The notes: generated from the sequence alone by a model not told the origin. A stretch of DNA of 64,000 nucleotides from an uncultured Gammaproteobacteria bacterium (GCA_964452565.1 CAYVLY010000001.1:451053-515052); one strand, 5' to 3'. Counted from the first letter of the stretch, positions 2,726 through 31,219 are shown. Translations and numbers: made by a program.

Positions 2726-3277
2726 CTATTCAGTCTTAGCCGCCTTACCAGCCTTTCGTCGAACAACTTCATCAGTGTATCGAAATCCTTTGCCCTTGTA
2801 AGGCTCTGGCTTTTTAAATGCTCGAATCTCGGCAGTTACTTGACCAACAAGCTGCTTATCGATTCCTGAAATGGTCAAAAGATTTCCATCAATTGTGGCT
2901 TCAATTCCTTCTGGCAAATCATATTCAATCTGATGAGAGAATCCAAGTCGCATCACAAGCTTCTTCCCTTTAACATCCATTCTGAAACCAACTCCATGCA
3001 ATTCTAGAGCTCGAGTCCAGCCCTGTGAAACTCCAAGGATCATGTTTGCGATGTTTGCTCGTGTAGTTCCCCAGATCGCGCTGTCTTGCTCCTTGTCGAC
3101 TGGAGTTGATATCACCTGATTCTCTGCGACCTCGATCTTTACTCGATTCGAGATCTGAGTCTTGAGCTCACCCTTTGGACCTTTTGCAGTTACCTCAAGA
3201 CCCTTAACATCTAGAGTAACGCCATCTGGAAGCTCAATAACCTTTTTTCCGATTCGTGACATATTAGAAGATTTCAC
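2726..3277 (-). CDS. rplF: 50S ribosomal protein L6; an alternative start is MSRIGKK at about 3262
   Basis: MSRIGKKVIELPDGVTLDVKGLEVTAKGPKGEL... with two L6 alpha-beta domains and the expected spc operon position. Confidence 0.9.
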   Translation of the reverse strand: MKSSNMSRIGKKVIELPDGVTLDVKGLEVTAKGPKGELKTQISNRVKIEVAENQVISTPVDKEQDSAIWGTTRANIANMILGVSQGWTRALELHGVGFRMDVKGKKLVMRLGFSHQIEYDLPEGIEATIDGNLLTISGIDKQLVGQVTAEIRAFKKPEPYKGKGFRYTDEVVRRKAGKAAKTE

Positions 3278-3656
3278 AAATTACTTCTCCACCAAGACGT
3301 CGCTTTCGCGCCTCATTGTTTGTCATTAACCCATTTGGTGTTGAAATGATAGCAATACCATGACCTGAGCGTACATATGGTAGCTCTTCTGTCTTTACAT
3401 ACACGCGTCGTCCTGGCTTACTAATACGCTTGATAGACTCAATATTTGATACTCCATCGTCGTACTTTAACTTAAGACGCAACACGGGGTGTTTAAGACC
3501 GTCTGTTCTTTCAACTCCCACAAGGTATCCTGCATTTTCCAATACCTTTGCAAGAGCGAATTTTACTTTTGACATTGGGACATCAACCGTTTGCTTTCGA
3601 ACCATTGAAGCATTACGGATACGTGTCAACATGTCTGAGATTGGATCTGTCATCAT
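3264..3656 (-). CDS. rpsH: 30S ribosomal protein S8; start taken at the MMTDPISD Met, not the upstream ORF start at 3692
   Basis: MTDPISDMLTRIRNASMVRKQTVDVPMSKVKFALAKVLENAGYL... is the S8 signature. The chosen start avoids overlap with the S14 stop at 3658. Confidence 0.9.
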   Translation of the reverse strand: MMTDPISDMLTRIRNASMVRKQTVDVPMSKVKFALAKVLENAGYLVGVERTDGLKHPVLRLKLKYDDGVSNIESIKRISKPGRRVYVKTEELPYVRSGHGIAIISTPNGLMTNNEARKRRLGGEVICEIF

Positions 3657-3657
3657 A

Positions 3658-3843
3658 TTACCAACTTGCTTTCTTAATTCCGGGAATCTCACCCTTGTTT
3701 GCTAGCTCTCTAAAACAAATACGACATAGGCCAAATGCGCGCATATATGCTCGGTTACGTCCGCAGCGCCAACATCGGTTCACGTGTCGAGACATGAACT
3801 TAGGTCGTTTTTGTGACTTTACAATTTGATTTCTTGTAGCCAT
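3658..3843 (-). CDS. rpsZ: 30S ribosomal protein S14, type Z (zinc-binding, 61 aa)
   Basis: 61 aa carrying a CxxC...CxxC pattern ([26 protein letters not shown]), typical of the short Zn-ribbon form of S14. Confidence 0.9.
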
Positions 3844-5347: not shown

Positions 5348-5536
5348 TTATTTAGTCACTTCTTGCAAGCGAGTTAGAATGCGTGCAATATTTGCTCGAA
5401 CTTCACGAACCTCGCGAACATCCTTGAGTTGGTTTACAGAAATCTTTGTTCGCAATTCATAAAGACTTGCACGCTCTTCTGCCAAAAGCTTTTGCAGTTC
5501 TTTTTCTGTCTTTTTTTCTAGATCCTTGAATTCCAT
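5348..5536 (-). CDS. rpmC: 50S ribosomal protein L29
   Basis: 62 aa helical protein (ELQKLLAEERASLYELRTKISVNQLKDVREVREVRANIARILT) between rplP and rpsQ. Confidence 0.85.
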   Translation of the reverse strand: MEFKDLEKKTEKELQKLLAEERASLYELRTKISVNQLKDVREVREVRANIARILTRLQEVTK

Positions 5537-5537
5537 A

Positions 5538-5951
5538 CTATTTTCGCGTTACAACTTTGGTTTTCATTGGAAGCTTGTGTGCTGCAAGACGCAATGCCTC
5601 ACGTGCAATATCTTCTTCAACACCATCCATTTCAAACATGACTGTTCCAGCTCGCACAGGTGTCATGTAGTAATCTACTCCCCCCTTTCCTTTTCCCATC
5701 GGAGCTTCAGATCCATGAGATGTTATTGGGTGGTCAGGAAAAATTCTAATCCAGATCTTACCACCACGTTTGACGTAACGAGTCATCGCACGACGCGCAG
5801 CCTCAATCTGACGAGATGTCACCCATGACTCTGTCATTGCCTTCAAGCCATACGCACCAAACGCAACATTAGTCTTTTGCGTTGCAACACGATCACCTTT
5901 TGTGCGTCGCTTGTGCCACTTTCGAAATTTCATCTTTTTTGGAACCAACAT
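5538..5951 (-). CDS. rplP: 50S ribosomal protein L16
   Basis: MLVPKKMKFRKWHKRRTKG...GAYGLKAM...RQIEAARRAMTRYVKRGGKIWIRIFPDHPIT matches L16. Confidence 0.92.
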   Translation of the reverse strand: MLVPKKMKFRKWHKRRTKGDRVATQKTNVAFGAYGLKAMTESWVTSRQIEAARRAMTRYVKRGGKIWIRIFPDHPITSHGSEAPMGKGKGGVDYYMTPVRAGTVMFEMDGVEEDIAREALRLAAHKLPMKTKVVTRK

Positions 5952-5963
5952 ATACTTCTATAA

Positions 5964-6653
5964 TTACGCCCGCTTGTTATAACGTGCTGGCCTTGGACCT
6001 TTATCTTCCTCACCCTCAAATACTTCTCCTTTATAAATCCAAACCTTTACACCAATAGCACCATAAATAGTATCTGCCTGAACATGAGAATAGCTAACAT
6101 CAGCACGCAGGTTATGTAGAGGAATACTTCCCTGATGAACTCGCTCCTTTCGGGCGATATCTGCACCATTAAGTCGTCCGCCAACCTGAATCTTCACTCC
6201 CTTTGCTCCTGCCTTCATAACACGCTCCATTGCCATCTTCATTGAACGACGGAACGGGAGGCGTTTTTCAATATCCTGAGCTACCTGTGTTGCTACAACG
6301 TTTGCTGAAAGCGATGGCTGAGAGATTTCTTGAACATTAATCACTAGGTTTACCTTTTTTCCTCGGTAAAACTTCTTCATCATCTTTGATCGTAGATCCT
6401 CAATCCCTGCACCTGAGCGTCCAATTACAACTCCAGGCTTTGCAGCATGTATAGTTGTAGTAATCTTGTTCGCATTGCGATCAATCTCCAGCAGGTCAAT
6501 GCCCGCGTCCTTAAGTTCCTTTCTTAGGAAATCACGAATACGCACATCGTCACTAAGTTGAGCGATGTAATTTTTCTTATTTCCAAACCACTTTGAATCC
6601 CATTTATAAATGGTTGAGAGGCGGAATACTTTTGGATGAATCTTTCGTCCCAT
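5964..6653 (-). CDS. rpsC: 30S ribosomal protein S3; start taken at MGRKIHPK
   Basis: MGRKIHPKVFRLSTIYKWDSKWF... carries a KH domain and an S3 C-terminal domain. The ORF's upstream extension would overlap rplV, so the internal Met is chosen. Confidence 0.92.
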   Translation of the reverse strand: MGRKIHPKVFRLSTIYKWDSKWFGNKKNYIAQLSDDVRIRDFLRKELKDAGIDLLEIDRNANKITTTIHAAKPGVVIGRSGAGIEDLRSKMMKKFYRGKKVNLVINVQEISQPSLSANVVATQVAQDIEKRLPFRRSMKMAMERVMKAGAKGVKIQVGGRLNGADIARKERVHQGSIPLHNLRADVSYSHVQADTIYGAIGVKVWIYKGEVFEGEEDKGPRPARYNKRA

Positions 6654-9207: not shown

Positions 9208-9815
9208 ATATCTCCGTCAGTTCCAATTATTTGAATGATGCTTCCACGACTTCCAGGAATCGCACCCTTGATTGCAAGAGTTCCGTCTTTTTCGTTAACC
9301 TGTACAACTTCTAAATTCTTTACTGTTACTCGATCTCCACCCATGCGTCCTGCCATACGAACTCCCTTAAACACCTTTTGTGGTCCACCGGCTCCAATAG
9401 AACCGGGCATTCGCAACTGATCTTTATGTCCATGAGACGCTGGGCTTCCATGGAATCCGTGGCGTTTTACAACTCCTTGGAATCCTTTTCCTTTCGAAAC
9501 CCCTATCGCATCAACCATGTCTCCCTGCTCAAATACAGAAAGGTTGATTGTATCTCCTTTTTTAAATTCCTCCCCTTCCGGAAGCTTGATCTCACAAACA
9601 TGTGCAAAAGATCCTAGACCTTCCCATTGCTTCTGCTGTGGCTTTGCAAGATTCTTCTTATTTCCAAAACCAACTACAACCGCTTTTCTATCTTGATACT
9701 CGCGAACCTCAATAACTGTACAAGGTCCTGCTTGCACAAGAGTGACAGGTACGACTGTTCCATCGTCTTTAAACACCTGTGTCATCTCGATTTTTTTTCC
9801 GATGATGGCTTTCAT
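9195..9815 (-). CDS. rplC: 50S ribosomal protein L3
   Basis: MKAIIGKKIEMTQVFKDDGTVVPVTLVQAGPCTV...FKGVRMAGRMGGDRVT matches L3. Confidence 0.92.
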   Translation of the reverse strand: MKAIIGKKIEMTQVFKDDGTVVPVTLVQAGPCTVIEVREYQDRKAVVVGFGNKKNLAKPQQKQWEGLGSFAHVCEIKLPEGEEFKKGDTINLSVFEQGDMVDAIGVSKGKGFQGVVKRHGFHGSPASHGHKDQLRMPGSIGAGGPQKVFKGVRMAGRMGGDRVTVKNLEVVQVNEKDGTLAIKGAIPGSRGSIIQIIGTDGDIWQK

Positions 9816-19790: not shown

Positions 19791-19883
19791 AGCTATTTAT
19801 ATTATCGCAAAGTTGGTGGTTTTTGCAAAGAAAAACAGGTGAATTCATCCACCCGTTATCCATAGTTTTTCCACATTTGTTAT

Positions 19884-20345
19884 CTATGCTCCAAAATGGT
19901 ACTGATCTGTAAGCTTTTTGTAGTCAAATACCTCATCCTTATCGAAGAATCGATCAATTTCTATTGCTGCATTTTCAACCGAATCTGAGGCATGGACGAC
20001 ATTTCCTGCAAGATCCATTGAAAGATCTGCTCTTATAGTTCCAGCATCAGCCTCTCGTGGATTTGTTGATCCAACAATCTTTCTAACCTCATTTATAACA
20101 TCAATACCCTCTAACACCATGCCTAATACAGGAGTCTGCATCATAAACTCTGAAAGACCTTTGTAAAAAGGCTTATCAACGTGGTGACTATAGTGATCTG
20201 CAAGAATAGTTTCATCAAGGTTAATCAACTTCATTCCTGCGATTTTCAAACCCTTTCTTTCAAATCGATGCACTATCTCCCCAACCAACTCTCGCTGAAA
20301 AGCATCTGGCTTGATCAGTACTAATGTTTTTTGTACGTCTGACAT
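19884..20345 (-). CDS. ndk: nucleoside diphosphate kinase
   Basis: 153 aa: TLVLIKPDAFQRELVGEIVHRFERKGLKIAGMKL, and NVVHASDS containing the active-site His. Confidence 0.93.
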   Translation of the reverse strand: MSDVQKTLVLIKPDAFQRELVGEIVHRFERKGLKIAGMKLINLDETILADHYSHHVDKPFYKGLSEFMMQTPVLGMVLEGIDVINEVRKIVGSTNPREADAGTIRADLSMDLAGNVVHASDSVENAAIEIDRFFDKDEVFDYKKLTDQYHFGA

Positions 20346-20405
20346 AAAATATGTTTAATTCGCAGGAAATATAGCAATAAACTACAAAAGAATCAAGCAC
20401 ATAGA

Positions 20406-20441
20406 GCTTCATGAATTGAACGATCGTTCAATTCATGAAGC
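20406..20441 (-). terminator. 36-bp perfect palindrome GCTTCATGAATTGAACGATCGTTCAATTCATGAAGC that abuts the stop codon of 20442..20984
   Basis: Each half is the exact reverse complement of the other, centred on GATC. A T-rich tract follows on the minus strand. Confidence 0.6.
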
Positions 20442-20984
20442 CTACAGTTCAGAAGCAAGAAAAACCCTGAACCAATTATCAGATTTGAATCTTGAAGAAA
20501 ACAACCTAGCCACATAGTCACTAATATTTTTCGAACAGCACCATACACTTCGATGCATCTGCTTAAAGCCTAATCGCTTCAATATGTGCCTAACCTGATT
20601 ACGTAGTCGTTTGTGATCCTCAGGTATATCAAATGAGATCAAACAAATCTGGCCACCTGGTAGATTATTTGCGTTCATTGAGAGCTGCGCCATATATTCC
20701 TCGAACCCTGCCTTAGAAAATGATGTTAAATACCCGTCAGCTATCTTTTTTCTATCGATTAATCTTCTTTTCTCTAACCTCCTAAATTCCTGTCTCCTTA
20801 GTTTAGCCTCTTTTCTGTCTAAGAACTCTCTTGCGCCCTCTATACCAAATCTAACCACCAACCCCGGCCTAGAAAGACCAAAGTGAACATCTTCAATAGC
20901 TTGCCCGATATCAACAAGTATTCTCGCTGTTCTAGAATGAGGTTGAAGAGGCCTTACAGCTTCATTAATTAAACGATCGTTCAT
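20442..20984 (-). CDS. Hypothetical protein whose C-terminal roughly 85 aa resemble the Cas2/VapD fold; the N-terminal roughly 95 aa are a basic helical extension (possibly a PaaX-like regulator family)
   Basis: The C-terminal half ICLISFDIPEDHKRLRNQVRHILKRLGFKQMHRSVWCC...DNWFRVFLASEL follows the Cas2 pattern (beta1-YD[IV], RRR-KV-K-L, G-R-Q-SV[FW]EC, R[IV][FY]-L). No cas1 gene or CRISPR array is in the window. Confidence 0.5.
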   Translation of the reverse strand: MNDRLINEAVRPLQPHSRTARILVDIGQAIEDVHFGLSRPGLVVRFGIEGAREFLDRKEAKLRRQEFRRLEKRRLIDRKKIADGYLTSFSKAGFEEYMAQLSMNANNLPGGQICLISFDIPEDHKRLRNQVRHILKRLGFKQMHRSVWCCSKNISDYVARLFSSRFKSDNWFRVFLASEL

Positions 20985-20999
20985 AAAGTGAAACTTTTA

Positions 21000-21845
21000 T
21001 TAATACAATTTAATTTCATATCCCTCCGATGAGCAAATGACTCTAATATCGCCATGAAGGTCTGTTCTATAGACTTGCACGTTCATCTGATCTAGACGAT
21101 TCAGAACCTCATCATGTGGATGGCCGTAGTCGTTCTCACCAACTGAGATTATCGCCACCTCTGGATCAACTGCTTTGAGAAAATCAACATGCGACGATGT
21201 GTAACTCCCCTGATGCGCAACCTTGAGAATATCTATATCTCCGACATATTCCATGATCGCCAGCTCCTGGTCAGCGCCAATATCACCGGTCAACAAAATT
21301 CGAGTTTCAAAGCATTCGACTAGCATGACGATCGATCCATCATTGGGATCGTCAAGTTGCACCCCTTCGAGGTTCGCGACAGGCCACACGACTTCAATCG
21401 AAACTTGCTCGTCGATCCACAACCTCTCGCCCGACAGCACAGTCGAATCCCTACCCTCGATCAGATCTTCAAACTCATTCGAAAAACTTGTGCCATATTC
21501 TTGCCCACTAACCCAAACACTACCGACCAAATATCTATCAAGTACATCAATCAAACCAGTAAGATGATCAGCATGCGGGTGTGTATTCACAATCAGGTCA
21601 ATCGACCTATCCCAAAACGGCATAACTATGGACAGCTTTTCAACAATCACATTTGATGGTCCGCCATCGATCAATACTTGCATATCGGAGTCGATAAAGA
21701 TTGCATCCCCCTGCCCCACATCAAACACCCACACAGAAACCTCATCACCCCAAGACTGAAATCGGAAAGACTGAATCAGTACTACTATAACCAACGTAAA
21801 AGTTAGGACTGCAATGCTAATGATACGTTTATTTTTGAACTCCAT
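21000..21845 (-). CDS. comEC: ComEC/Rec2 C-terminal metallo-beta-lactamase domain protein (a membrane anchor followed by an MBL fold)
   Basis: VWVFDVGQGDAIFI...IVNTHPHADHLTGL...LKVAHQGS...DYGHPHDEVL are MBL motifs. It overlaps the upstream ORF by 43 nt in a different frame. Confidence 0.75.
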   Translation of the reverse strand: MEFKNKRIISIAVLTFTLVIVVLIQSFRFQSWGDEVSVWVFDVGQGDAIFIDSDMQVLIDGGPSNVIVEKLSIVMPFWDRSIDLIVNTHPHADHLTGLIDVLDRYLVGSVWVSGQEYGTSFSNEFEDLIEGRDSTVLSGERLWIDEQVSIEVVWPVANLEGVQLDDPNDGSIVMLVECFETRILLTGDIGADQELAIMEYVGDIDILKVAHQGSYTSSHVDFLKAVDPEVAIISVGENDYGHPHDEVLNRLDQMNVQVYRTDLHGDIRVICSSEGYEIKLY

Positions 21846-23338
21846 ATTTTGATATTAAGGACCAGCCAACCAAGTAGTGTAATCATGATCACAATCCAAT
21901 GAATCGACTGCATAAACAGATCCAAGCCAGCAAAAGCTTCTACAGTCCAGAGCATCGCAGTGAGTGAAAGCCACGTAGGTGCACTTAGAATCGCAGCGAT
22001 CTTCACACTTATAAGACCCATGCATGTCGCAATAGCACCAGTAGCCATGGCAAGTGGAATCCATGGCAGAACAAACACATTTGCAAATAAACTCACAAGC
22101 GAAAACTCTCCGAATTGCAAAAGTATAACCGGCAAACTCATAAACGTTGCGGCCAAGGTTGCAATAACCGATTCCCTGATCACGAGCTGCTTTGGCAGCC
22201 ACTTCAATCGCTTTTCGATAATCGGAGACAAGTAAATCAGACCAATCGTTGACATCATTGAAAGCTGAAACCCAACATCATCTCGAAGCAACCTTGGATT
22301 GATCATCAACATTATGGAAGCGGTCAAAAGTAATACGTTGATCATGCTGGTACGTCGCCCTGTTTGATTGGCTGTAATCAAAACAATTCCCATTACCCCT
22401 GCTCTAAAAACAGCAGCATCTGCTCCTGCCAACATAATGTATCCAACAACTGCTGCTACTAAGAATGCAAAGGCACGCTGGCGCTTCACGCCAATGGATG
22501 CGAAGAACCCCATTGCAATCCAAAGCACAACTGAAATGTTATAACCTGAGGCCGCAACGATATGAGTAGTCCCTGTTTGTAAGAATCGTTCCTCCCATTC
22601 TTCGCTGAATCGCTGCTCGCCCAACAATAAGCCAACAAGCAAGGACCCATGCGGCTCTCCAAATACTTGATCCAACTTTTTGATAAATGCTGACCGTGCA
22701 TCAAGCAAAATAGACTTCCAGTTCCTATTCCCTTCCTCGATCAAGAAAACATTGTACGTAAAACACGTCGCGTAAATACTTTTCGAAGCTAAGTATCGAT
22801 CGTATGCAAAGTCCTCAATCATTCCAGGCGCCTCAAGCTCACATCGGGCCCTCAGCTGATCGCCATACTCGTACTTAGGATATGGCAAGGTGATGACCTG
22901 AACTCGATCTTCGATCGCAGCATCATTAACGATCAGATTCGACAAAACAATCCGCTGCCAACCATTACTCACTTCAACATCGGCAACAGCGCCATCGATA
23001 ATTAACTCTTGACCTGCATAATTTGCAATCGACTCACTTGAAGGAAAGCTGTGCATATATCGCCATGCACCAACTCCCGATACAAGCAGGCAGATCAAAA
23101 CCAACAGAAAACCAACTTGCCTTACTACTTTAGAAAGCACGATTCCGATCAATGCTATAAAACCTGCGACCCAGATCCACTGCACCTCACTGTTCAAATT
23201 CAAACACCACGACAAAACAGCGATTCCCGCAAGGAACCCGACACATATCGCACGCACTACATTTGATGGTGATACTTTCATAAGCAAAAACCCCCTCTCG
23301 GGGGCTTTTTCTGGCATTTGCATGACGACTTTTGTCAT
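21803..23338 (-). CDS. comEC: ComEC/Rec2 N-terminal part: a DUF4131-like region plus the polytopic competence membrane domain
   Basis: 511 aa with a multi-transmembrane competence-channel architecture. Together with 21000..21845 it equals a full-length ComEC of about 790 aa. It is either a natural split or a frameshift. Confidence 0.75.
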   Translation of the reverse strand: MTKVVMQMPEKAPERGFLLMKVSPSNVVRAICVGFLAGIAVLSWCLNLNSEVQWIWVAGFIALIGIVLSKVVRQVGFLLVLICLLVSGVGAWRYMHSFPSSESIANYAGQELIIDGAVADVEVSNGWQRIVLSNLIVNDAAIEDRVQVITLPYPKYEYGDQLRARCELEAPGMIEDFAYDRYLASKSIYATCFTYNVFLIEEGNRNWKSILLDARSAFIKKLDQVFGEPHGSLLVGLLLGEQRFSEEWEERFLQTGTTHIVAASGYNISVVLWIAMGFFASIGVKRQRAFAFLVAAVVGYIMLAGADAAVFRAGVMGIVLITANQTGRRTSMINVLLLTASIMLMINPRLLRDDVGFQLSMMSTIGLIYLSPIIEKRLKWLPKQLVIRESVIATLAATFMSLPVILLQFGEFSLVSLFANVFVLPWIPLAMATGAIATCMGLISVKIAAILSAPTWLSLTAMLWTVEAFAGLDLFMQSIHWIVIMITLLGWLVLNIKIWSSKINVSLALQS

Positions 23339-24865: not shown

Positions 24866-27800
24866 CTAAACAACGAAGTTGATTAGCCTACCTGGAACAT
24901 AAACTACTTTCTTTACATCGTCCTTGATGTGCTTTGTAACATTCTCATCAGCTTTTGCTAGGTCTTCGACTTCATCCTGAATTGCATCTGGCGCTGCCTG
25001 GACCTCACCACGAAGTTTGCCGTTTACTTGAACTGCAATATTTACAAGCTCATCGACCACAAGCTCCTGATCATACTCAGGCCACTCGCCTTCTTCGAGC
25101 ATCTTCTTTTCACCAAGCTGCTCAGCAAGTTCATTTGCAAGATGTGGCGCAAATGGGCACAAAATCTGTAAGAACCTCTGGAATGTATCTTTTGTAATCG
25201 TATCTGATGCTTGGCACTGATTAACAAATGTCATCATCTGCGCAACTGCAGTGTTGAACCTCATGGTTTCAATATCTTCTGTGACCTTTTTGATCGTCTT
25301 ATGAAGTGCACGTGTAACAAATTCTGGCTCCTTATCTCCAGTCAACTCAGCCAATCGAACTACCCTATCCAAGAATCGCCGAACTCCAACTGATCCATTT
25401 GTATTCCATGGCACAGGCTCTTCAAACGGCCCCATGAACATTTCATAAACACGAAGCGTATCAGCACCATACTTTTCTACAATCTCGTCCGGATTTATTA
25501 CATTGCCCTTGGACTTTGACATCTTGTGACCATCCTCAGCCAAGATCAAACCATGCGAAGTACGCTTTTCATATGGCTCGCTAGTTGGAGCTGCGTCAAT
25601 GTCAAACAAAAACTTATTCCAGAATCGTGAATATAAAAGATGTAGTGTTGTATGCTCCATTCCACCGTTATACCAAGTCACTGGTCCCCAATAATTTAAC
25701 GGGTGGCTCATGTAATCTTTCAGGAACTGAACTTTTTCGTCATCCTCCTTGCCTTCACGAGTCTCTGGGAATGTCTCATGCAAAAAATTATAGTGATGCA
25801 GCATGTACTTTGGAGATAGTGTTTGGAATGACTCACCCCAAAGGAACCCACGCTCAGATAACTCTAAATCTGGCTTATGTAAAATCTGTTGCCTAATCTC
25901 AGGTGGCAAACTCTTATCTCGCAGATGAGTGTAGATATCACCTCCAAGGTGATACGCAGGAACCAACTCAACCATCATTCCGTCCTTTTCAATCCTATTC
26001 CATCCTCGATCTTCTTCATGGACCACAAATCCATCACCACGCAGAATCTCAAGTGCCTTATCAAAGTTTTCTCCAAGAATAAAAAGATCAAGATCGTGCA
26101 TGTGACGCCACAACTCCTTATTAAGTCCATTAATCATTAGTGACCCTGACGCCCAGAGCATAATGTTGTGCTCTGCAAGCAGAGCCTTCATATGCTTGAA
26201 CAAATCAAATAGCTTATGATCTAATTCGTCGGGTTGGATTTCAGCTCGCTTCCATTTATTCACGCCAAACATCTCATTACTCTGCGGTGCAGCATAGCGC
26301 ATAAAGTACCAACTTGATCCTGCCCAGTTTGGCATCACATCAGTTTCACGCCGCGCCGGCTTTCCACACTCAGGACAATCAACACTTACCCAATCTTCTA
26401 TGTTCGAAAGTGGACTCTCGCCGGTATCAGTTGGTTCATACTTATCTACTTCAGGAAGTGTAAGCGGCAATTGCTCCTCGCTCATTGGGAACCATCCGTC
26501 ACCATATCGACTCTTACTCTTACAATGCTCACAATGAACCATTGGAATTGGCTCACCCCAATAACGCTGACGAGAAAAAACCCAGTCACGCAACTTGTAC
26601 TGAACCTTTGATGCCCCAATGCCATAATCCTCAAGCCAATCTGTGATCTTTTTCTTTGCGTCTGCTGTTGAGAGGCCATTCAAGAAATCTGAGTTAATCG
26701 CAGTCCCTTCTCCAGAAAAGCAACAATCAGTCTCTTGAGATCCTTCGACTCCCTCTGGTCGCTCAGGATGACGGATTGCGGTATCCGCGACCGTCACTTC
26801 CACGACTTTTAATCCAAACTTCTGAGCAAACTCGTAGTCACGCTCATCGTGTGCCGGAACTGCCATTATTGCTCCAGTTCCATAGCCTGTCATGACATAA
26901 TCTGCGACCCAGATTGGAATCCTTTCATCTGTGAGCGGATTTAGAGCTTGCAATCCCTTAAGCTCAACTCCTGTCTTTTCTTTTGAAGCATCGCCACGCT
27001 CGAAATCTGATTTTGATGATGCATCTTTGACATATTCTCGAACCTCTTTGATATTTTCAATCTTATCTGAGTGCCTCTCAATCATCCCATGCTCTGGAGC
27101 AATTACCATGTAGGTTGCTCCAAACACAGTATCGGGTCGTGTTGTGAAAACTTCCAAATGATTCTTAGCATGCTCTGGACCATACTCTTCCTCAACAATG
27201 TCAGGGAGTGGGAACTTGATCATTGCCCCCTCTGATCTGCCGATCCAGTTCTTTTGCTGCAGTTTGACTGGTTCGATATAATCCAAAAACTTTAAATCTT
27301 TAATCAACCGATCAGCATACTGAGTAATCCGCAACATCCACTGTTCCTTGCTTCGTTTCTCAACTTCCCCACTACAACGTTCACATGCGCCATTTACAAC
27401 CTCCTCATTTGCAAGTCCAATCTTGCAGTTCAAACACCAGTTGATTGCGACCTTATCTTTGTAAGCAAGTCCGTTTTTGAAAAGCTGCAAAAAGATCCAC
27501 TGCGTCCATTTGTAATACTCGGGATCTGTCGTATTGATCTCGCGCGACCAATCAAAACTAAAACCAAGTGACTGAAGTTGTCTTCGAAATGTATCAGTAT
27601 TTTCTTTTGTAACATCTTGCGGCTTACGACCAGTCTTAATGGCATAGTTCTCTGTTGGAAGACCAAACGCATCCCATCCAATCGGATATAAGACATTGCG
27701 ACCCTCCATGCGCTTTTTGCGCGCGATAATGTCTAGCGCTGTGTAGCTCCTGGGATGACCAATGTGCAGTCCGGCACCTGATGGATATGGAAACTCGATC

Positions 27801-27907
27801 AGAAGATAGTACTTCTCAAGAGTTGGATCATCTTTGGCCTCAAACACGCCGGAATCCATCCAGCGCTTTTGCCATTTCTTTTCAATATTGTTGTGATCGT
27901 AAGGCAT
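24866..27907 (-). CDS. leuS: leucyl-tRNA synthetase carrying a roughly 200-aa in-frame insertion of a LinA/ANT(2'')-like nucleotidyltransferase domain (aa 545-745)
   Basis: HIGH motif (PYPSGAGLHIGHPRSY), a CP1 editing domain, GGMEHTTLHLLYSRFW, and KMSKSKGN. The insertion lies between the Zn-knuckle region and GGMEH; see the findings. Confidence 0.95.
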   Translation of the reverse strand: MPYDHNNIEKKWQKRWMDSGVFEAKDDPTLEKYYLLIEFPYPSGAGLHIGHPRSYTALDIIARKKRMEGRNVLYPIGWDAFGLPTENYAIKTGRKPQDVTKENTDTFRRQLQSLGFSFDWSREINTTDPEYYKWTQWIFLQLFKNGLAYKDKVAINWCLNCKIGLANEEVVNGACERCSGEVEKRSKEQWMLRITQYADRLIKDLKFLDYIEPVKLQQKNWIGRSEGAMIKFPLPDIVEEEYGPEHAKNHLEVFTTRPDTVFGATYMVIAPEHGMIERHSDKIENIKEVREYVKDASSKSDFERGDASKEKTGVELKGLQALNPLTDERIPIWVADYVMTGYGTGAIMAVPAHDERDYEFAQKFGLKVVEVTVADTAIRHPERPEGVEGSQETDCCFSGEGTAINSDFLNGLSTADAKKKITDWLEDYGIGASKVQYKLRDWVFSRQRYWGEPIPMVHCEHCKSKSRYGDGWFPMSEEQLPLTLPEVDKYEPTDTGESPLSNIEDWVSVDCPECGKPARRETDVMPNWAGSSWYFMRYAAPQSNEMFGVNKWKRAEIQPDELDHKLFDLFKHMKALLAEHNIMLWASGSLMINGLNKELWRHMHDLDLFILGENFDKALEILRGDGFVVHEEDRGWNRIEKDGMMVELVPAYHLGGDIYTHLRDKSLPPEIRQQILHKPDLELSERGFLWGESFQTLSPKYMLHHYNFLHETFPETREGKEDDEKVQFLKDYMSHPLNYWGPVTWYNGGMEHTTLHLLYSRFWNKFLFDIDAAPTSEPYEKRTSHGLILAEDGHKMSKSKGNVINPDEIVEKYGADTLRVYEMFMGPFEEPVPWNTNGSVGVRRFLDRVVRLAELTGDKEPEFVTRALHKTIKKVTEDIETMRFNTAVAQMMTFVNQCQASDTITKDTFQRFLQILCPFAPHLANELAEQLGEKKMLEEGEWPEYDQELVVDELVNIAVQVNGKLRGEVQAAPDAIQDEVEDLAKADENVTKHIKDDVKKVVYVPGRLINFVV

Positions 27908-28064
27908 AGTGCATCTAGTTTATCGAAATCCGCTGAAAATGGGAAATACATATCAAGGTTAAGCCCCCGAGGTTCAACCTTGGATGCAAATCCTGCCAAA
28001 CAAAGGCTTTGACAAACCGACCTTAGTACGGCAATGTATAGCCATCCCTTTCAAACCCCTGCCC

Positions 28065-28580
28065 ATGGAGCAAAGCATGCAACATGCACAACGACCCAGT
28101 ATCTCAACCATGATCCTCGTGTCGCTCTTCGTGGTGAGCCTCGCAGTCCTTATGAGGCCCAACGACACCGAGGTAATCGAGAACGCTAGTGACGTGATGG
28201 TCGGGCCGACAGAAGAAGAACACGAGTTCGCCCACACGATCGTCGACAACAACTGCGACGGCCTCAACTGCTTCGCGTACATCGCCAGTCCGCAGGACAC
28301 GGACGATGAACTCTACGACGCAGGCTCTGATCGCGGCCGGTTCGTGCGCCTCATCACCCCACAGGGAGATGATCTCGCATTCGACATCCGCTACGGTGAC
28401 ATCTTCGTAGCGATCGACATCCTGCACTGCCGGGTCGACTCGAACTGCGGTGTGAGACCAATGCAATTCAATGAGGGGTTCGGTCTCATCTTCTACGACG
28501 CGCCCCGAGGAGATCACAAGCAGACCATGCACCCAAACGATCTGCGCTTCAGCCTAGCACCCAAAAAGGAGACGCCATGA
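28065..28580 (+). CDS. Hypothetical secreted or membrane-anchored protein in a GC-rich island; the start is uncertain (28065 or 28104) and the protein contains an HEFAH motif
   Basis: An N-terminal hydrophobic segment MILVSLFVVSLAVLM, 6 Cys, and about 60% GC. The track ORF begins at 27984. Confidence 0.45.
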   Translation: MEQSMQHAQRPSISTMILVSLFVVSLAVLMRPNDTEVIENASDVMVGPTEEEHEFAHTIVDNNCDGLNCFAYIASPQDTDDELYDAGSDRGRFVRLITPQGDDLAFDIRYGDIFVAIDILHCRVDSNCGVRPMQFNEGFGLIFYDAPRGDHKQTMHPNDLRFSLAPKKETP

Positions 28581-29002
28581 ACACTCGACACCTCATCCTC
28601 CTGATCATGACCATGCTCTCTGGCTGCTGGTGGGCTCCTTCGGCCCAAGAGGTCGAGCTGATCCGTGCGATCGACGCAGCCGGCTGCGGCTACAACCACA
28701 AGAGATGCAAGATCTACATAGATCGCCGAGAAGAGAGTGATCCTACTGTCCACCTGGAGTACTTCCGCATTGTGAGCGCGGGGTCACTACGGGCAGGAGA
28801 AGATGTCGACAAGACTTTTGAGATAGCAAAGGGCAGGATCTTTCGCGCTCTTGAAGAACTTGACTGCACGAAAGATGGCCACTGTGGGGTCCGGGTATAC
28901 GTCGTGTGCTCGAACATCGTCTACGCCAAGGTTGCTCACCCCAAGAAACAGCCCATCAACATCAACACCGGCATCGATGCTGACATGCTCAAGGAGGAAT
29001 GA
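28577..29002 (+). CDS. Hypothetical lipoprotein (lipobox LSGC) in the same GC-rich island
   Basis: MNTRHLILLIMTMLSGCWW... is a signal peptide ending in a lipobox cysteine. The protein is 141 aa and about 58% GC. Confidence 0.5.
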   Translation: MNTRHLILLIMTMLSGCWWAPSAQEVELIRAIDAAGCGYNHKRCKIYIDRREESDPTVHLEYFRIVSAGSLRAGEDVDKTFEIAKGRIFRALEELDCTKDGHCGVRVYVVCSNIVYAKVAHPKKQPININTGIDADMLKEE

Positions 29003-29004
29003 TC

Positions 29005-29118
29005 ATGCGGAGGATATGGTTCAAGTTCTGGTTCCAGGTCAACTCGAACATGCCATTGATGATCGTCATCGCACTGATCATCGCAGCTGCCTGGCTCCTG
29101 CCCTATGGCAGCCACTAG
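29005..29118 (+). CDS. Possible 37-aa single-transmembrane small protein, MRRIWFKFWFQVNSNMPLMIVIALIIAAAWLLPYGSH
   Basis: An AAGGAGG motif sits 7 nt upstream of the ATG, and the start overlaps the stop of the preceding gene. The ORF is too short for the ORF track. Confidence 0.3.
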   Translation: MRRIWFKFWFQVNSNMPLMIVIALIIAAAWLLPYGSH

Positions 29119-29291
29119 GCGTTCAATATGCCTGTCTCGCCCGCCCGCGTCCCCACCAGGACGCGGCTTCTGCTTTTCACAGAACCCAGACGCCAGACTT
29201 CAGAACCCAGAAAGGATCTTATCTGTGTTCTGTGTTCTGCCCAAGCACAAGACCCCGACGCGCGGGACGGGGTCGATAGACGGTTGAAACG

Positions 29292-31148
29292 TTACTGAAC
29301 ATTGACCCTGTGGGGTCGCGGTCCGGATCCAGAGGAGAACTTGGAGCCTCCTGGATCCTGCGGCGTTGCTGTGATTCGGTAGTCGATGCCGTTGGAGAAC
29401 GTATCATCCCACGATATCGTAGCCTGGTAGGCGCCACCACGCGTGGCAAGCGGTTTGGACTTGTATGCACCCGAGTTTGTCGGACGATAGTAGACCACCA
29501 CCTTGTAGCTGCCTTCTGGGTGCACGCGCGCCTTGACCATGAAATCCTGGCCGATAGTGAGCGAACTCACTGGCACGTGCTGGATCCCAGGCTCGATGGT
29601 TGGCTCAGGCTCAGGTGCGGCGACCATAGCCTCAGGTTCAGGTTCGACCGTCACCTCGGGCTCGATCAGCACTTCTGGCTCAGGGATCTCAATGACTGGC
29701 TCAGGCTCAGGGGCCTTGGCAACCGAATCAGGTTCGATCGGATCGGGCACCGGAACGACTTCAGGCTCAGGCTCGATCACCACTTCAGGTTCGATCTGTA
29801 CCAATGCTTCGAGCTCGACAACCTTGGCTGCCTCAGGGCTGGGACCATGGGTTTCGATCTGTACCTCAGGCTCGGGCTCGGGAACTACGATCGGTTCTGG
29901 GTCCGACATGCCGGCCAGTTCGACCACAGGCTCCGATGCAGTAGCCTCTGGCGTCGCATCACCATCACCGAAGAGGACCATCCCCGCAACACAGAGCAAG
30001 ACCACTAGCCCAATGATTGCCACTGGGATGGGCCACCTGCTCCTGCGAGGTGTCGGTACATCGTCAGACAGACTATCGCCGGGCAGAACCGTGTGACCAC
30101 CTGGATCAAACGTTGTGCCAGCACTTCGGAGACCATCCAGATCTTGATCACCACTGACTGCATGCCCGTAACGTTCCTCAGGAACTTCGAGCTCCTCAGG
30201 AACCATTGTGCCGCCAGGCGGGACGACGCTCTGTGGCTCAGCCTCTACGGCCTCAGGCACACTAGCAAGCGCTTCATCAGGCTCGGACTCTGGTTCGACC
30301 ACCACCTCAGGTTCGGGCGGATCGTCAGGAAGCTCGTCGTAGATCGCACGAAGCGCATCGATCATCTCTTGCGCGCTCTGAAAGCGATCTTTGCGATTGT
30401 ACTTCGTTGCTTGCTCGATAAGCCCACGGAACACCTCAGGCACACTATTGAGCATATCAAGATCAAGCTCGCACGATTGAAGGTCTGGAGGAACTTCTAC
30501 CCCAACCAGCATGCAGTACAGCGTTGCGCCAACAGCGAAGATGTCAGAACGCAGATCTACGGAAGATCCATCACTCTTCTGCTCTGGCGACATGAAGCCA
30601 AACGTTCCCATCGGGGTACCGATCTTGGTAAGGCCTGTATCTTCGAGCTCCATCTGAACGATGCCGAAGTCAGTGACCTTCACCGCACCATCCTCAGTGA
30701 AAAGGATGTTCGCGGGCTTAATGTCACGGTGTACCATACCACGACCATGTGCGAGAGACAGTGCTCTGAGAACTGCAATACACACGCTAGCAGACCACTT
30801 CTGGCCTAGCGAACCGCGTTGATGAATCCTGTTAAGCAACGAGCCACCGGTGATGAATTCCATAACAATGAACTGCTTATCGCCACCATCACCATTACCG
30901 AATACGTCGTAGACAGATACGATGTGGTGGTGCCTAAGCCTTGCCATCGCCTTAGCTTCACGTACAAATCGCTCGCGAATCATCGGCCTATGAGACAGAT
31001 TGGGCAGCAACATCTTGATAGCAACTTCTGCATCCAGAGCGGTATTAGTCGCCCTGTACACCACTGCCATACCCCCCTCACCAATGATGGAGCCCAACTC
31101 ATACTTACCATCCGCAAGGAAGCGGTCTGGCGTTTTTTTCGAAGTCAT
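29292..31148 (-). CDS. Hanks-type Ser/Thr protein kinase with one transmembrane helix, a Pro/Glu-rich (PEPE repeat) extracytoplasmic linker and a roughly 90-aa C-terminal domain
   Basis: Kinase subdomains are present: GEGGMAVVYRA, VAIK, HRDIKPANIL, DFG and SPEQ. The transmembrane helix is WPIPVAIIGLVVLLCVAGMVLFG. The gene is about 62% GC, and AAGGAG sits 6 nt before the ATG. Confidence 0.85.
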   Translation of the reverse strand: MTSKKTPDRFLADGKYELGSIIGEGGMAVVYRATNTALDAEVAIKMLLPNLSHRPMIRERFVREAKAMARLRHHHIVSVYDVFGNGDGGDKQFIVMEFITGGSLLNRIHQRGSLGQKWSASVCIAVLRALSLAHGRGMVHRDIKPANILFTEDGAVKVTDFGIVQMELEDTGLTKIGTPMGTFGFMSPEQKSDGSSVDLRSDIFAVGATLYCMLVGVEVPPDLQSCELDLDMLNSVPEVFRGLIEQATKYNRKDRFQSAQEMIDALRAIYDELPDDPPEPEVVVEPESEPDEALASVPEAVEAEPQSVVPPGGTMVPEELEVPEERYGHAVSGDQDLDGLRSAGTTFDPGGHTVLPGDSLSDDVPTPRRSRWPIPVAIIGLVVLLCVAGMVLFGDGDATPEATASEPVVELAGMSDPEPIVVPEPEPEVQIETHGPSPEAAKVVELEALVQIEPEVVIEPEPEVVPVPDPIEPDSVAKAPEPEPVIEIPEPEVLIEPEVTVEPEPEAMVAAPEPEPTIEPGIQHVPVSSLTIGQDFMVKARVHPEGSYKVVVYYRPTNSGAYKSKPLATRGGAYQATISWDDTFSNGIDYRITATPQDPGGSKFSSGSGPRPHRVNVQ

Positions 31149-31219
31149 GCACCTCTCCTTGTCGAATGTGCAAAAGAACGCTCCTCACCTGACCCTGTGT
31201 CAGATTTGGAGAAGATGGG

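Follow-up and report, generated by a model that had tools for sequence, protein, structure and literature searches.

A short PaaX-like protein of Patescibacteria encoded between two private CGATCG-centred palindromes

Gene X and its two palindromes

The DNA analysed here is a stretch of 64,000 nucleotides (nt) from an assembly titled uncultured Gammaproteobacteria bacterium (GCA_964452565.1, CAYVLY010000001.1:451053-515052; called the window throughout). Its minus strand carries a gene (called gene X, and its protein X, for simplicity) that is enclosed by two related palindromes, P5' over its start codon and P3' directly behind its stop codon. A sequence-only reading had described an orphan Cas2 beside comEC with a terminator of its own, and this picture was largely explained away by the present analysis. 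What takes its place is a short PaaX-like protein without the effector domain, which travels as a cassette together with two private CGATCG-centred palindromes. The locus comprises the following features:

20442..20984, minus strand: gene X, a short PaaX-like protein of 180 amino acids (aa) with a winged helix and a Cas2-like PaaX_M domain, without PaaX_C
20676..20933, minus strand: N-terminal winged-helix domain, residues ~18-103, with two helices, a beta-hairpin wing and one helix; predicted local distance difference test (pLDDT) >90 in the AlphaFold2 model
20445..20657, minus strand: Cas2-like (PaaX_M) domain, residues ~110-180, with D119 and S146 invariant and P121, E122, R128, R132 and W148 near-invariant in the family
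20406..20441, no strand: P3', a 36-base-pair (bp) perfect palindrome, GCTTCATGAATTGAACGATCGTTCAATTCATGAAGC, whose first base follows directly after the gene X stop codon and whose end lies 9 nt upstream of the ndk -35 box
20955..20995, no strand: P5', an imperfect copy of the P3' element over the start codon and codons 1-10 (M-N-D-R-L-I-N-E), with the blocks TTTCAy ... GAACGATCGTT ... rTGAA

All other perfect palindromes in the 64 kb are shorter than P3', which was found exactly where the sequence-only reading had placed it. Its left arm and centre (20402-20430) recur at 20955-20983 as a 29-nt direct repeat of 90% identity, which forms the first ten codons of gene X, and the P5' region at 20958-20995 is 73% palindromic. 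With up to two mismatches allowed, the core TGAACGATCGTTCA occurs at two sites only in the window, i.e. in P3' and in P5'. The hexamer CGATCG itself occurs 23 times in the 64 kb, none of the sites being palindromic beyond the P3' and P5' copies; a HIP1-like genome-wide enrichment of CGATCG was rejected on these counts. The two copies differ in their potential to fold as RNA: P3' gave a 16-bp stem with a GAUC loop (-28.4 kcal/mol, z -6.45), whereas P5' gave no stable hairpin (-8.6 kcal/mol, z -0.6).

Three orthologous loci (L001, L005 and L008; the gene X orthologs are 59-74% identical in protein sequence) carry a perfect or near-perfect palindrome of 36-40 bp directly after the stop codon. These palindromes have species-specific arms but a common core, ACGATCGT, and common outer blocks, TTTCAy/rTGAAA. 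At the gene starts of the orthologs, the blocks TTTCAy-N5-6-GAACGATCGT-N7-8-rTGAA are again present. In L001 the start codon is shifted upstream and a different reading frame runs over the P5' blocks, which are nevertheless conserved. Since the blocks are kept despite the change of frame, the conserved M-N-D-R..E N-terminus of the ortholog group is probably dictated by the DNA element.

Fold and family of protein X

Judged by its Pfam matches, protein X is a member of the PaaX_M-containing superfamily. PaaX_M ('PaaX protein central Cas2-like domain') was the best match (residues 114-164, E 1.9e-10, 41.1 bits against a gathering score of 24) and was found above the Pfam threshold in 60 of 60 family members, in agreement with the earlier suggestion of a PaaX-like family member with a Cas2-like C-terminal domain. 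CRISPR_Cas2 also matched the C-terminal half, marginally above its cutoff (25.7 vs 23.8 bits). The motifs LISFDIPE, KRLRNQVRHILKRL, GFKQMHRSVWCC and DNWFRVFLASEL are present in the open reading frame (ORF), as quoted by the sequence-only reading. An AlphaFold2 model built from 60 family sequences reached a mean pLDDT of 93.6; a Foldseek search of the Protein Data Bank with this model returned Cas2 proteins on top, together with PaaX (8a39), Rv0674 (3kfw) and VapD, and the proposed Cas2 fold of the C-terminal half was thereby borne out. In the alignment, D119 within SFDIPE pairs with the beta1 Asp of the Cas2 protein SSO1404.

What had been taken for an N-terminal basic extension is a folded winged-helix domain, as seen from the confident model and from profile matches. 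The family profile showed weak similarity to ArsR/CzrA, AspA, MarR and the N-terminus of PaaX (8a39), a DUF6293_C winged-helix model was matched by 16 of 60 family members, and relatives matched the PADLOC models CARF3 and WH_III-A via their winged-helix portions. Csa3-type and CARF-associated winged-helix regulators and DUF6293_C resemble only the winged helix of several family members, and weakly so; unlike these regulators, X has neither a CARF domain nor a CRISPR context. PaaX_N (PF07848) was matched weakly by a single one of the 60 family members (E 0.0067).

PaaX of E. coli and Pseudomonas (PaaX_N PF07848, PaaX_M PF20803 and PaaX_C PF08223; PDB 8A39, 3L09) is a phenylacetyl-CoA-responsive repressor. 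X and PaaX have in common an N-terminal winged helix followed by a Cas2-like central domain, and the signature FDIPE..R..R..QxSxW is shared by X and three-domain PaaX-like proteins over the aligned part. These three-domain proteins run ~80 residues beyond the end of X, which stops with the Cas2-like domain; no match to PaaX_C was obtained for X. Gene X thus encodes a short PaaX-like protein that consists of the first two PaaX domains and misses the third, the PaaX_C effector domain. It is not PaaX proper: in addition to the missing PaaX_C (180 aa compared to ~260-316 aa for PaaX) and the weak PaaX_N match, no paa genes lie near gene X or its annotated relatives and paralogs. Because three-domain PaaX-like proteins carry the invariant Asp as well, this residue is a family signature and alone provides no evidence of nuclease activity.

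X shares with Cas2 and VapD the ferredoxin-like Cas2 fold of its C-terminal domain, in which the beta1 Asp and the QxSV(F/W) strand are conserved; in contrast to them, X is fused to a winged helix and scores better as PaaX_M, has no cas1 or CRISPR array with it, and no VapX-like partner was seen. Database entries for family members read 'hypothetical', 'PaaX' or 'CRISPR-associated endonuclease Cas2', and we considered whether X is a genuine but orphan adaptation protein of CRISPR, as the last of these names implies. Apart from these entries and the marginal Pfam match, PADLOC Cas2 models (E 2e-6 to 2e-3) speak for such an assignment. However, PaaX_M scores far higher (41 vs 26 bits), the NCBIfam cas2 equivalog TIGR01573 stayed under its cutoff (24.0 vs 24.5 bits), and X is twice as long as Cas2 and carries an N-terminal winged helix. 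The array search detected no CRISPR-like array in the 64 kb, in line with the sequence-only reading (the window ORFs were not all profiled for cas genes), and no Cas families are found among the annotated neighbours of 15 related loci. Family genes moreover occur as 2-4 paralogs per genome in housekeeping contexts. We therefore rejected CRISPR Cas2 as the identity of X, which we regard as extremely improbable given the missing array, the missing cas context and the better PaaX_M score; the NCBI annotation partly mislabels the family.

Bracketing palindromes are a trait of the whole family

An exhaustive HMMER search returned 1,693 representative clusters (50% identity) at E <= 1e-3 and 299 at E <= 1e-10, and among the best 150 listed members almost all are 130-230 aa long. 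The named sources all belong to the Candidate Phyla Radiation (CPR)/Patescibacteria (Uhrbacteria, Paceibacterota, Berkelbacteria and others), i.e. the family is large and CPR-specific. Species-representative genomes contain 2-4 paralogs, which are 27-68% identical within one genome, with lineage-specific expansions at 57-68%. Paralogs stand in unrelated contexts (after TPR, glycosyltransferase, gyrB and ComM-like genes). In the 64-kb window no second paralog was detected, the search giving noise matches only (E >0.01). No characterised member of the family was found. The literature search, which covered full texts but left subscription journals mostly outside its coverage, brought up no description of this CPR family or of its bracketing palindromes. 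Several metagenome-assembled genomes (MAGs; L022, L030, L031, L033, L034 and others) are titled 'uncultured Gammaproteobacteria bacterium' despite Patescibacteria-like family genes and contexts, and the taxonomic label in these titles is probably wrong.

Repeats at start and stop were seen in each of four distant homologs (21-54% identity), whose contexts are unrelated. The survey was then extended to 75 further loci of ~6 kb each from species-representative genomes, 72 of which were evaluated. For each gene, the best ungapped match of its 76-nt 3' flank anywhere in the locus was determined and was counted as positive if it fell between positions -150 and +30 relative to the start codon of that gene. 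The test was positive for 51 of the 72 family loci, but for 0 of 232 genes that neighbour the family genes in these loci. CGNNCG-centred palindromes hardly occur elsewhere than at the two ends of family genes. We counted 87 palindromes at these ends, 38 of them perfect; over all 87, the median arm is 19 bp (range 8-35), and the palindromes are ~30-50 bp long. Start and stop copies frequently agree in every base over 30-44 nt. The median distance from the end of the 5' copy to the ATG is 8 nt, and that from the stop codon to the 3' copy is 0 nt. Paralogs within one genome carry different palindrome arms. The bracketing repeats are thus a family-wide trait, with gene-specific arms around a conserved CGATCG centre.

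The centre is mostly CGATCG and sometimes CGGCCG or CGTACG, symmetric double changes that are present in both copies; asymmetric single changes are occasional. The bases 8-11 positions away from the dyad are 80-95% A/T. At positions 4-7 and 12-18 there is next to no sequence information, yet the symmetry stays at 75-93%. Mismatches within the palindromes comprise 42 G:T and 27 A:C on the sense strand, a difference that is not significant.

These data bear on the nature of P3', which the sequence-only reading had called the terminator of gene X. If it were a plain intrinsic terminator, its likeness to the gene start would be coincidental. A stable stem-loop directly after a stop codon fits a terminator, but P3' has no T-run, and the terminator scan made no call there while it did call a canonical terminator after ndk (19834-19857). 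In addition, repeats shared by start and stop are absent from the control genes, the CGATCG centre is conserved, and identical copies are found upstream of genes. On the basis of the terminator scan and the family-wide statistics we rejected this explanation as very unlikely; P3' is one of the paired repeats that bracket gene X.

Alternatively, the palindromes might act at the RNA level. As stem-loops at the 5' and 3' ends of the X mRNA, they would stabilise the message, serve as processing sites or form a translational operator, and either X, as an RNA-binding protein or RNase of the Cas2/VapD kind, or host RNase III would recognise and perhaps cut them. Cas2 and VapD are ribonucleases, and the long stem of P3' with its favourable folding energy, the compensatory variation of the arms with near-perfect pairing at non-conserved positions, the lean towards G:T mismatches and the placement of the two copies just before the ATG and at the stop codon would suit such a role. 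On the other hand, the 5' copy in the window and in the orthologs is not a stable hairpin, yet its sequence blocks are kept. The symmetric double substitutions affect the two central bases, which cannot pair in a hairpin, and hairpin function alone leaves the arm sequence shared by the 5' and 3' copies unexplained. The G:T excess falls short of significance, and the winged helix and the homology to PaaX point to double-stranded DNA as the target. We consider a role as RNA element unlikely.

Additional copies of the palindromes

In several loci further copies of the private palindrome were found beyond the two that bracket the family gene. L020 has the order palindrome-uvrA-palindrome-X-palindrome-uvrC. 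In L008-L010, a third perfect copy follows the M50 peptidase gene, so that the ndk-murA-M50 peptidase string is bracketed as well, and in L013 a third identical copy lies 25 nt upstream of a neighbouring gene start. One copy in L059 resembles the palindrome that belongs to a different paralog of its genome, and L014 contains several sites with the common inner core GGTTCGATCGAACC.

Some of these loci show peculiarities of their own. In L020 (320-410), a duplicated fragment of the uvrA N-terminus (13 codons, MQDKIVIKGAREH...) is found upstream of uvrA just past the extra palindrome, with a short insert between this fragment and the real start; this suggests a local rearrangement beside the palindrome. 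L013 has a 291-aa ORF without Pfam match beside the family gene (5575-6450, minus strand), enclosed by copies of the same palindrome at 5532-5561 and 6475-6508, i.e. the bracket can hold a second, unrelated gene. Between the M50 peptidase gene and rpsL of L005 (same lineage as P0006) lies a perfect 36-bp palindrome with CGATCG centre (TTTGCACAATGTGAACGATCGTTCACATTGTGCAAA, 9311-9346); its arms are unlike those of the local X gene, and it may therefore be a site of another paralog of that genome. In the MAG of L089 the family gene is found amid ~500 bp of unusual C/G-run repeats with cctcccccttcccaaagggaagggggagg-type hairpins (3210-3700 and upstream of 2661), and two cognate palindromes, TTTGGACGATCGTCCAAA, are placed 130 nt apart directly before a ksgA-like gene.

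The palindromes and gene X were inserted together between comEC and ndk

The genes next to the palindromes and the promoter of ndk delimit the cassette in the window:

21000..21845, minus strand: metallo-beta-lactamase (MBL)-fold protein (ComEC C-terminal domain as a separate gene, 281 aa), upstream boundary of the insertion, outside the cassette
19884..20345, minus strand: ndk, downstream boundary of the insertion, with its own canonical terminator
20368..20396, minus strand: ndk promoter, TTGATT-17-TGnTATATT, ancestral to the locus; the cassette lies between the MBL stop codon and its -35 box

In the window gene X has comEC, ndk, murA, the M50 peptidase gene and leuS as neighbours, and the order leuS-(MFS)-comEC-MBL-X-ndk-murA-M50 is kept in all close relatives. 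To find empty sites, metagenomes were searched with the MBL protein. Loci with an MBL protein at least 56% identical contain X together with the palindromes. In eight loci with an MBL protein 39-54% identical (L097, L099, L101, L103, L111, L114, L117 and L119), ndk follows 0-65 nt after the MBL stop codon, and both the family gene and a CGNNCG palindrome are absent. Two of these empty sites show the ndk promoter starting right behind the MBL stop codon (L099 and L101; TTGACT-17-TAATAT or TATACT), whereas in the window the MBL stop codon and the ndk promoter (TTGATT-17-TATATT) are ~600 nt apart, the space being filled by P5'-X-P3'.

Since comEC-MBL directly precedes ndk in relatives without gene or palindrome, the P5'-X-P3' unit is an inserted cassette, in which the palindromes arrived together with gene X. 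An ancestor of this Uhrbacteria subclade acquired the unit behind the comEC-MBL stop codon and ahead of the ndk promoter. The insertion is old, given that the G+C content of gene X shows no compositional anomaly and that the locus has been vertically inherited since. The adjacency to comEC stressed by the sequence-only reading is real in that gene X lies next to a split comEC pair, but it carries no functional weight: the neighbourhood is conserved in close relatives, while the more distant relatives have ndk directly after the MBL gene. A functional link to comEC or competence was rejected on account of these empty sites and of the contexts of the paralogs, one of which follows a ComM-like gene while the others follow TPR, glycosyltransferase and gyrB genes. 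Whatever the role of X turns out to be, the comEC adjacency is not to be taken as a link to competence.

The comEC pair consists of two overlapping genes on the minus strand, DUF4131+Competence (511 aa, 21803-23338) and the MBL domain (21000-21845), with an overlap of 43 nt; the split is kept in all related loci (485-488 aa and 282-285 aa).

A cassette of this kind raises the possibility of a selfish or mobile element. RAYT (REP-associated tyrosine transposase) genes are each flanked by their own type of repetitive extragenic palindrome (REP), a parallel to the private palindromes of the gene X family. By analogy to REP/RAYT or IS200, the palindromes would be the ends of the element or dispersed cognate repeats, and X would be catalytic via a Cas2-like metal site at the dimer axis, its nicking, cleavage or recombination activity leading to insertion, local spread of the palindrome or maintenance of the cassette. 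Like RAYT (TnpA_REP) and IS200/IS605, gene X is a single small gene that lies between cognate palindromic repeats; like REP/RAYT, the family has private repeats for each paralog and extra copies in intergenic spaces after stop codons, and like IS200 it forms a unit of ~600-700 bp. The precise placement of the unit between the MBL stop codon and the ndk -35 box, the existence of empty sites lacking both gene and palindrome, the unrelated contexts and lineage-specific expansions of 2-4 paralogs in tiny genomes, the frequent identity of both copies, the extra cognate copies in nearby intergenic spaces, the minimal spacing to start and stop codon and the invariant Cas2 beta1 Asp are all in favour of this explanation.

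Against it, no near-identical copies in differing contexts were seen, and the window locus is vertically inherited, with the ORF intact in orthologs down to 59% identity. The base composition of gene X is unremarkable, and a phage origin was not indicated, as no PHROGs match was obtained. In contrast to RAYT and IS200/IS605, X lacks the HUH-Y1 fold and motifs; no HUH, DDE, tyrosine- or serine-recombinase signature was detected, nor any HUH/Tyr motif among the conserved columns. The Asp of FDIPE is equally conserved in three-domain PaaX-like proteins, the relatives of a plain repressor. While REP repeats are dispersed genome-wide in tens to hundreds of copies, the copy number is low in the DNA sampled here (2 in the 64-kb window and 1-2 extra in some loci of 6-12 kb). 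Taken together, we regard the selfish element as rather unlikely. A further step, namely that the palindrome-gene-palindrome units constitute a class of minimal selfish or mobile cassettes that has gone unrecognised in CPR, with X acting catalytically on its private CGATCG-centred palindromes or copying them, is in our view more doubtful still. If it were true, the units would be functionally analogous to REP/RAYT or IS200, but with the Cas2 fold as their basis, and a Cas2-fold protein would recognise palindromic repeats of CRISPR-repeat length outside CRISPR, which would bear on the origin of Cas2 and of repeat recognition.

X as a putative autoregulator on long dyad operators

E. coli PaaX is a repressor composed of a winged helix-turn-helix, a dimerisation motif and an effector domain, which binds the 39-bp dyad TGATTC(N27)GAATCA and represses its own promoter (reviewed in PMC9493321). 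The palindromes of the gene X family are of similar length (~30-50 bp), and in most loci one of them likewise lies at the start of its own gene. The reading we favour, although we hold the case for and against it to be about evenly balanced, is that X is a PaaX-type dimeric autoregulator and that the palindromes are its putative operators. In this model X would be a minimal DNA-binding protein, a winged helix fused to a Cas2-like dimerisation core, and a two-fold symmetric dimer would bind a dyad operator of ~36 bp, with its Cas2-like core above the conserved CGATCG centre and the gene-specific arms read by the variable winged helices. Two such operators would frame gene X, one at or over the start codon and one right after the stop codon. 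Autoregulation could take place at P5', via a roadblock or via looping over ~550 bp to P3'. With 9 bp between the end of P3' and the ndk -35 box, X bound at P3' could influence the ndk-murA-M50 peptidase string downstream as well. DNA binding by X itself, the geometry of the dimer and repression are what we infer beyond the fold and family, the family-wide bracketing repeats, the cassette insertion and the paralog-specific arms, which the data show.

Several observations are in line with this model. As the central bases of a hairpin cannot pair, the symmetric CGGCCG and CGTACG changes in both copies indicate a two-fold symmetric reader of double-stranded DNA. The 5' copy of the window, which has retained its sequence blocks but no hairpin potential, and the A/T tract one helical turn from the dyad point in the same direction. 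The conserved Cas2-like domain is paralleled by the conserved centre, and the variable winged helix by the variable arms, which differ between paralogs of one genome. Extra cognate sites are present before other genes (L020, L008, L013 and L059).

Other observations weigh against an autoregulator. That X and not a host factor reads the palindromes is deduced from their co-occurrence, and X has no recognisable effector domain. In the window the MBL stop codon and P5' lie too close together for a promoter to fit in, and inspection of 35 aligned 5' sites gave no consistent placement of -35 and -10 boxes within or beside P5'. The symmetry reaches to position 18 at near-unconserved positions, arms of at least 27 bp occur and 38 of the 87 palindromes are perfect; such extended symmetry exceeds the needs of a typical operator and also suits the formation of a hairpin or cruciform. 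P3' abuts the stop codon, and in 20 of 68 loci the downstream gene is convergent, so that P3' there is not in any promoter. The lean of the mismatches towards G:T is a weak hint of RNA pairing. Due to the near-perfect long arms, the abutment of P3' to the stop codon, the lack of an effector domain and the cassette behaviour, the REP/RAYT- or IS200-like element and the RNA hairpin stay alive as rivals; the excess of G:T over A:C (42 vs 27) is too weak to decide between them.

An autoregulator of this type would differ from PaaX in that its putative operators are perfect or nearly so over their full length, share a CGATCG centre and stand on both sides of the gene, and in that the family is specific to CPR, with several paralogs per genome. 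CPR/Patescibacteria genomes are tiny, and to our knowledge no regulators have been characterised in these organisms. If X is a regulator, the family would offer a compact, orthogonal set of repressors and operators and a handle on gene regulation in CPR; if it is catalytic, it would represent a new kind of minimal mobile element on the Cas2 fold. Each family gene carries its presumptive recognition sites with it (two copies of a private palindrome of 30-50 bp with a common CGATCG centre), and the specificity of protein for site is therefore directly testable and can be read from sequence across hundreds of natural protein/site pairs.

Other observations in the window

The leucyl-tRNA synthetase encoded by leuS (24866-27907, minus strand) comprises 1013 aa, compared to 803-834 aa in related genomes (998 aa in L001), with an insertion of ~180 aa within the synthetase around 'QPDELDHKLFDLFKHMKALL...DYMSHPL'. 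An Rfam scan of the window returned two tRNAs only. At 28000-31150 the local G+C content rises to 57% (window mean 46%), which coincides with a Ser/Thr kinase-like ORF of 618 aa (29292-31148, minus strand); its C-terminal half is full of acidic proline repeats of the PEPEPE/VVEPE type, which account for the direct repeats D1 and D2 found there.

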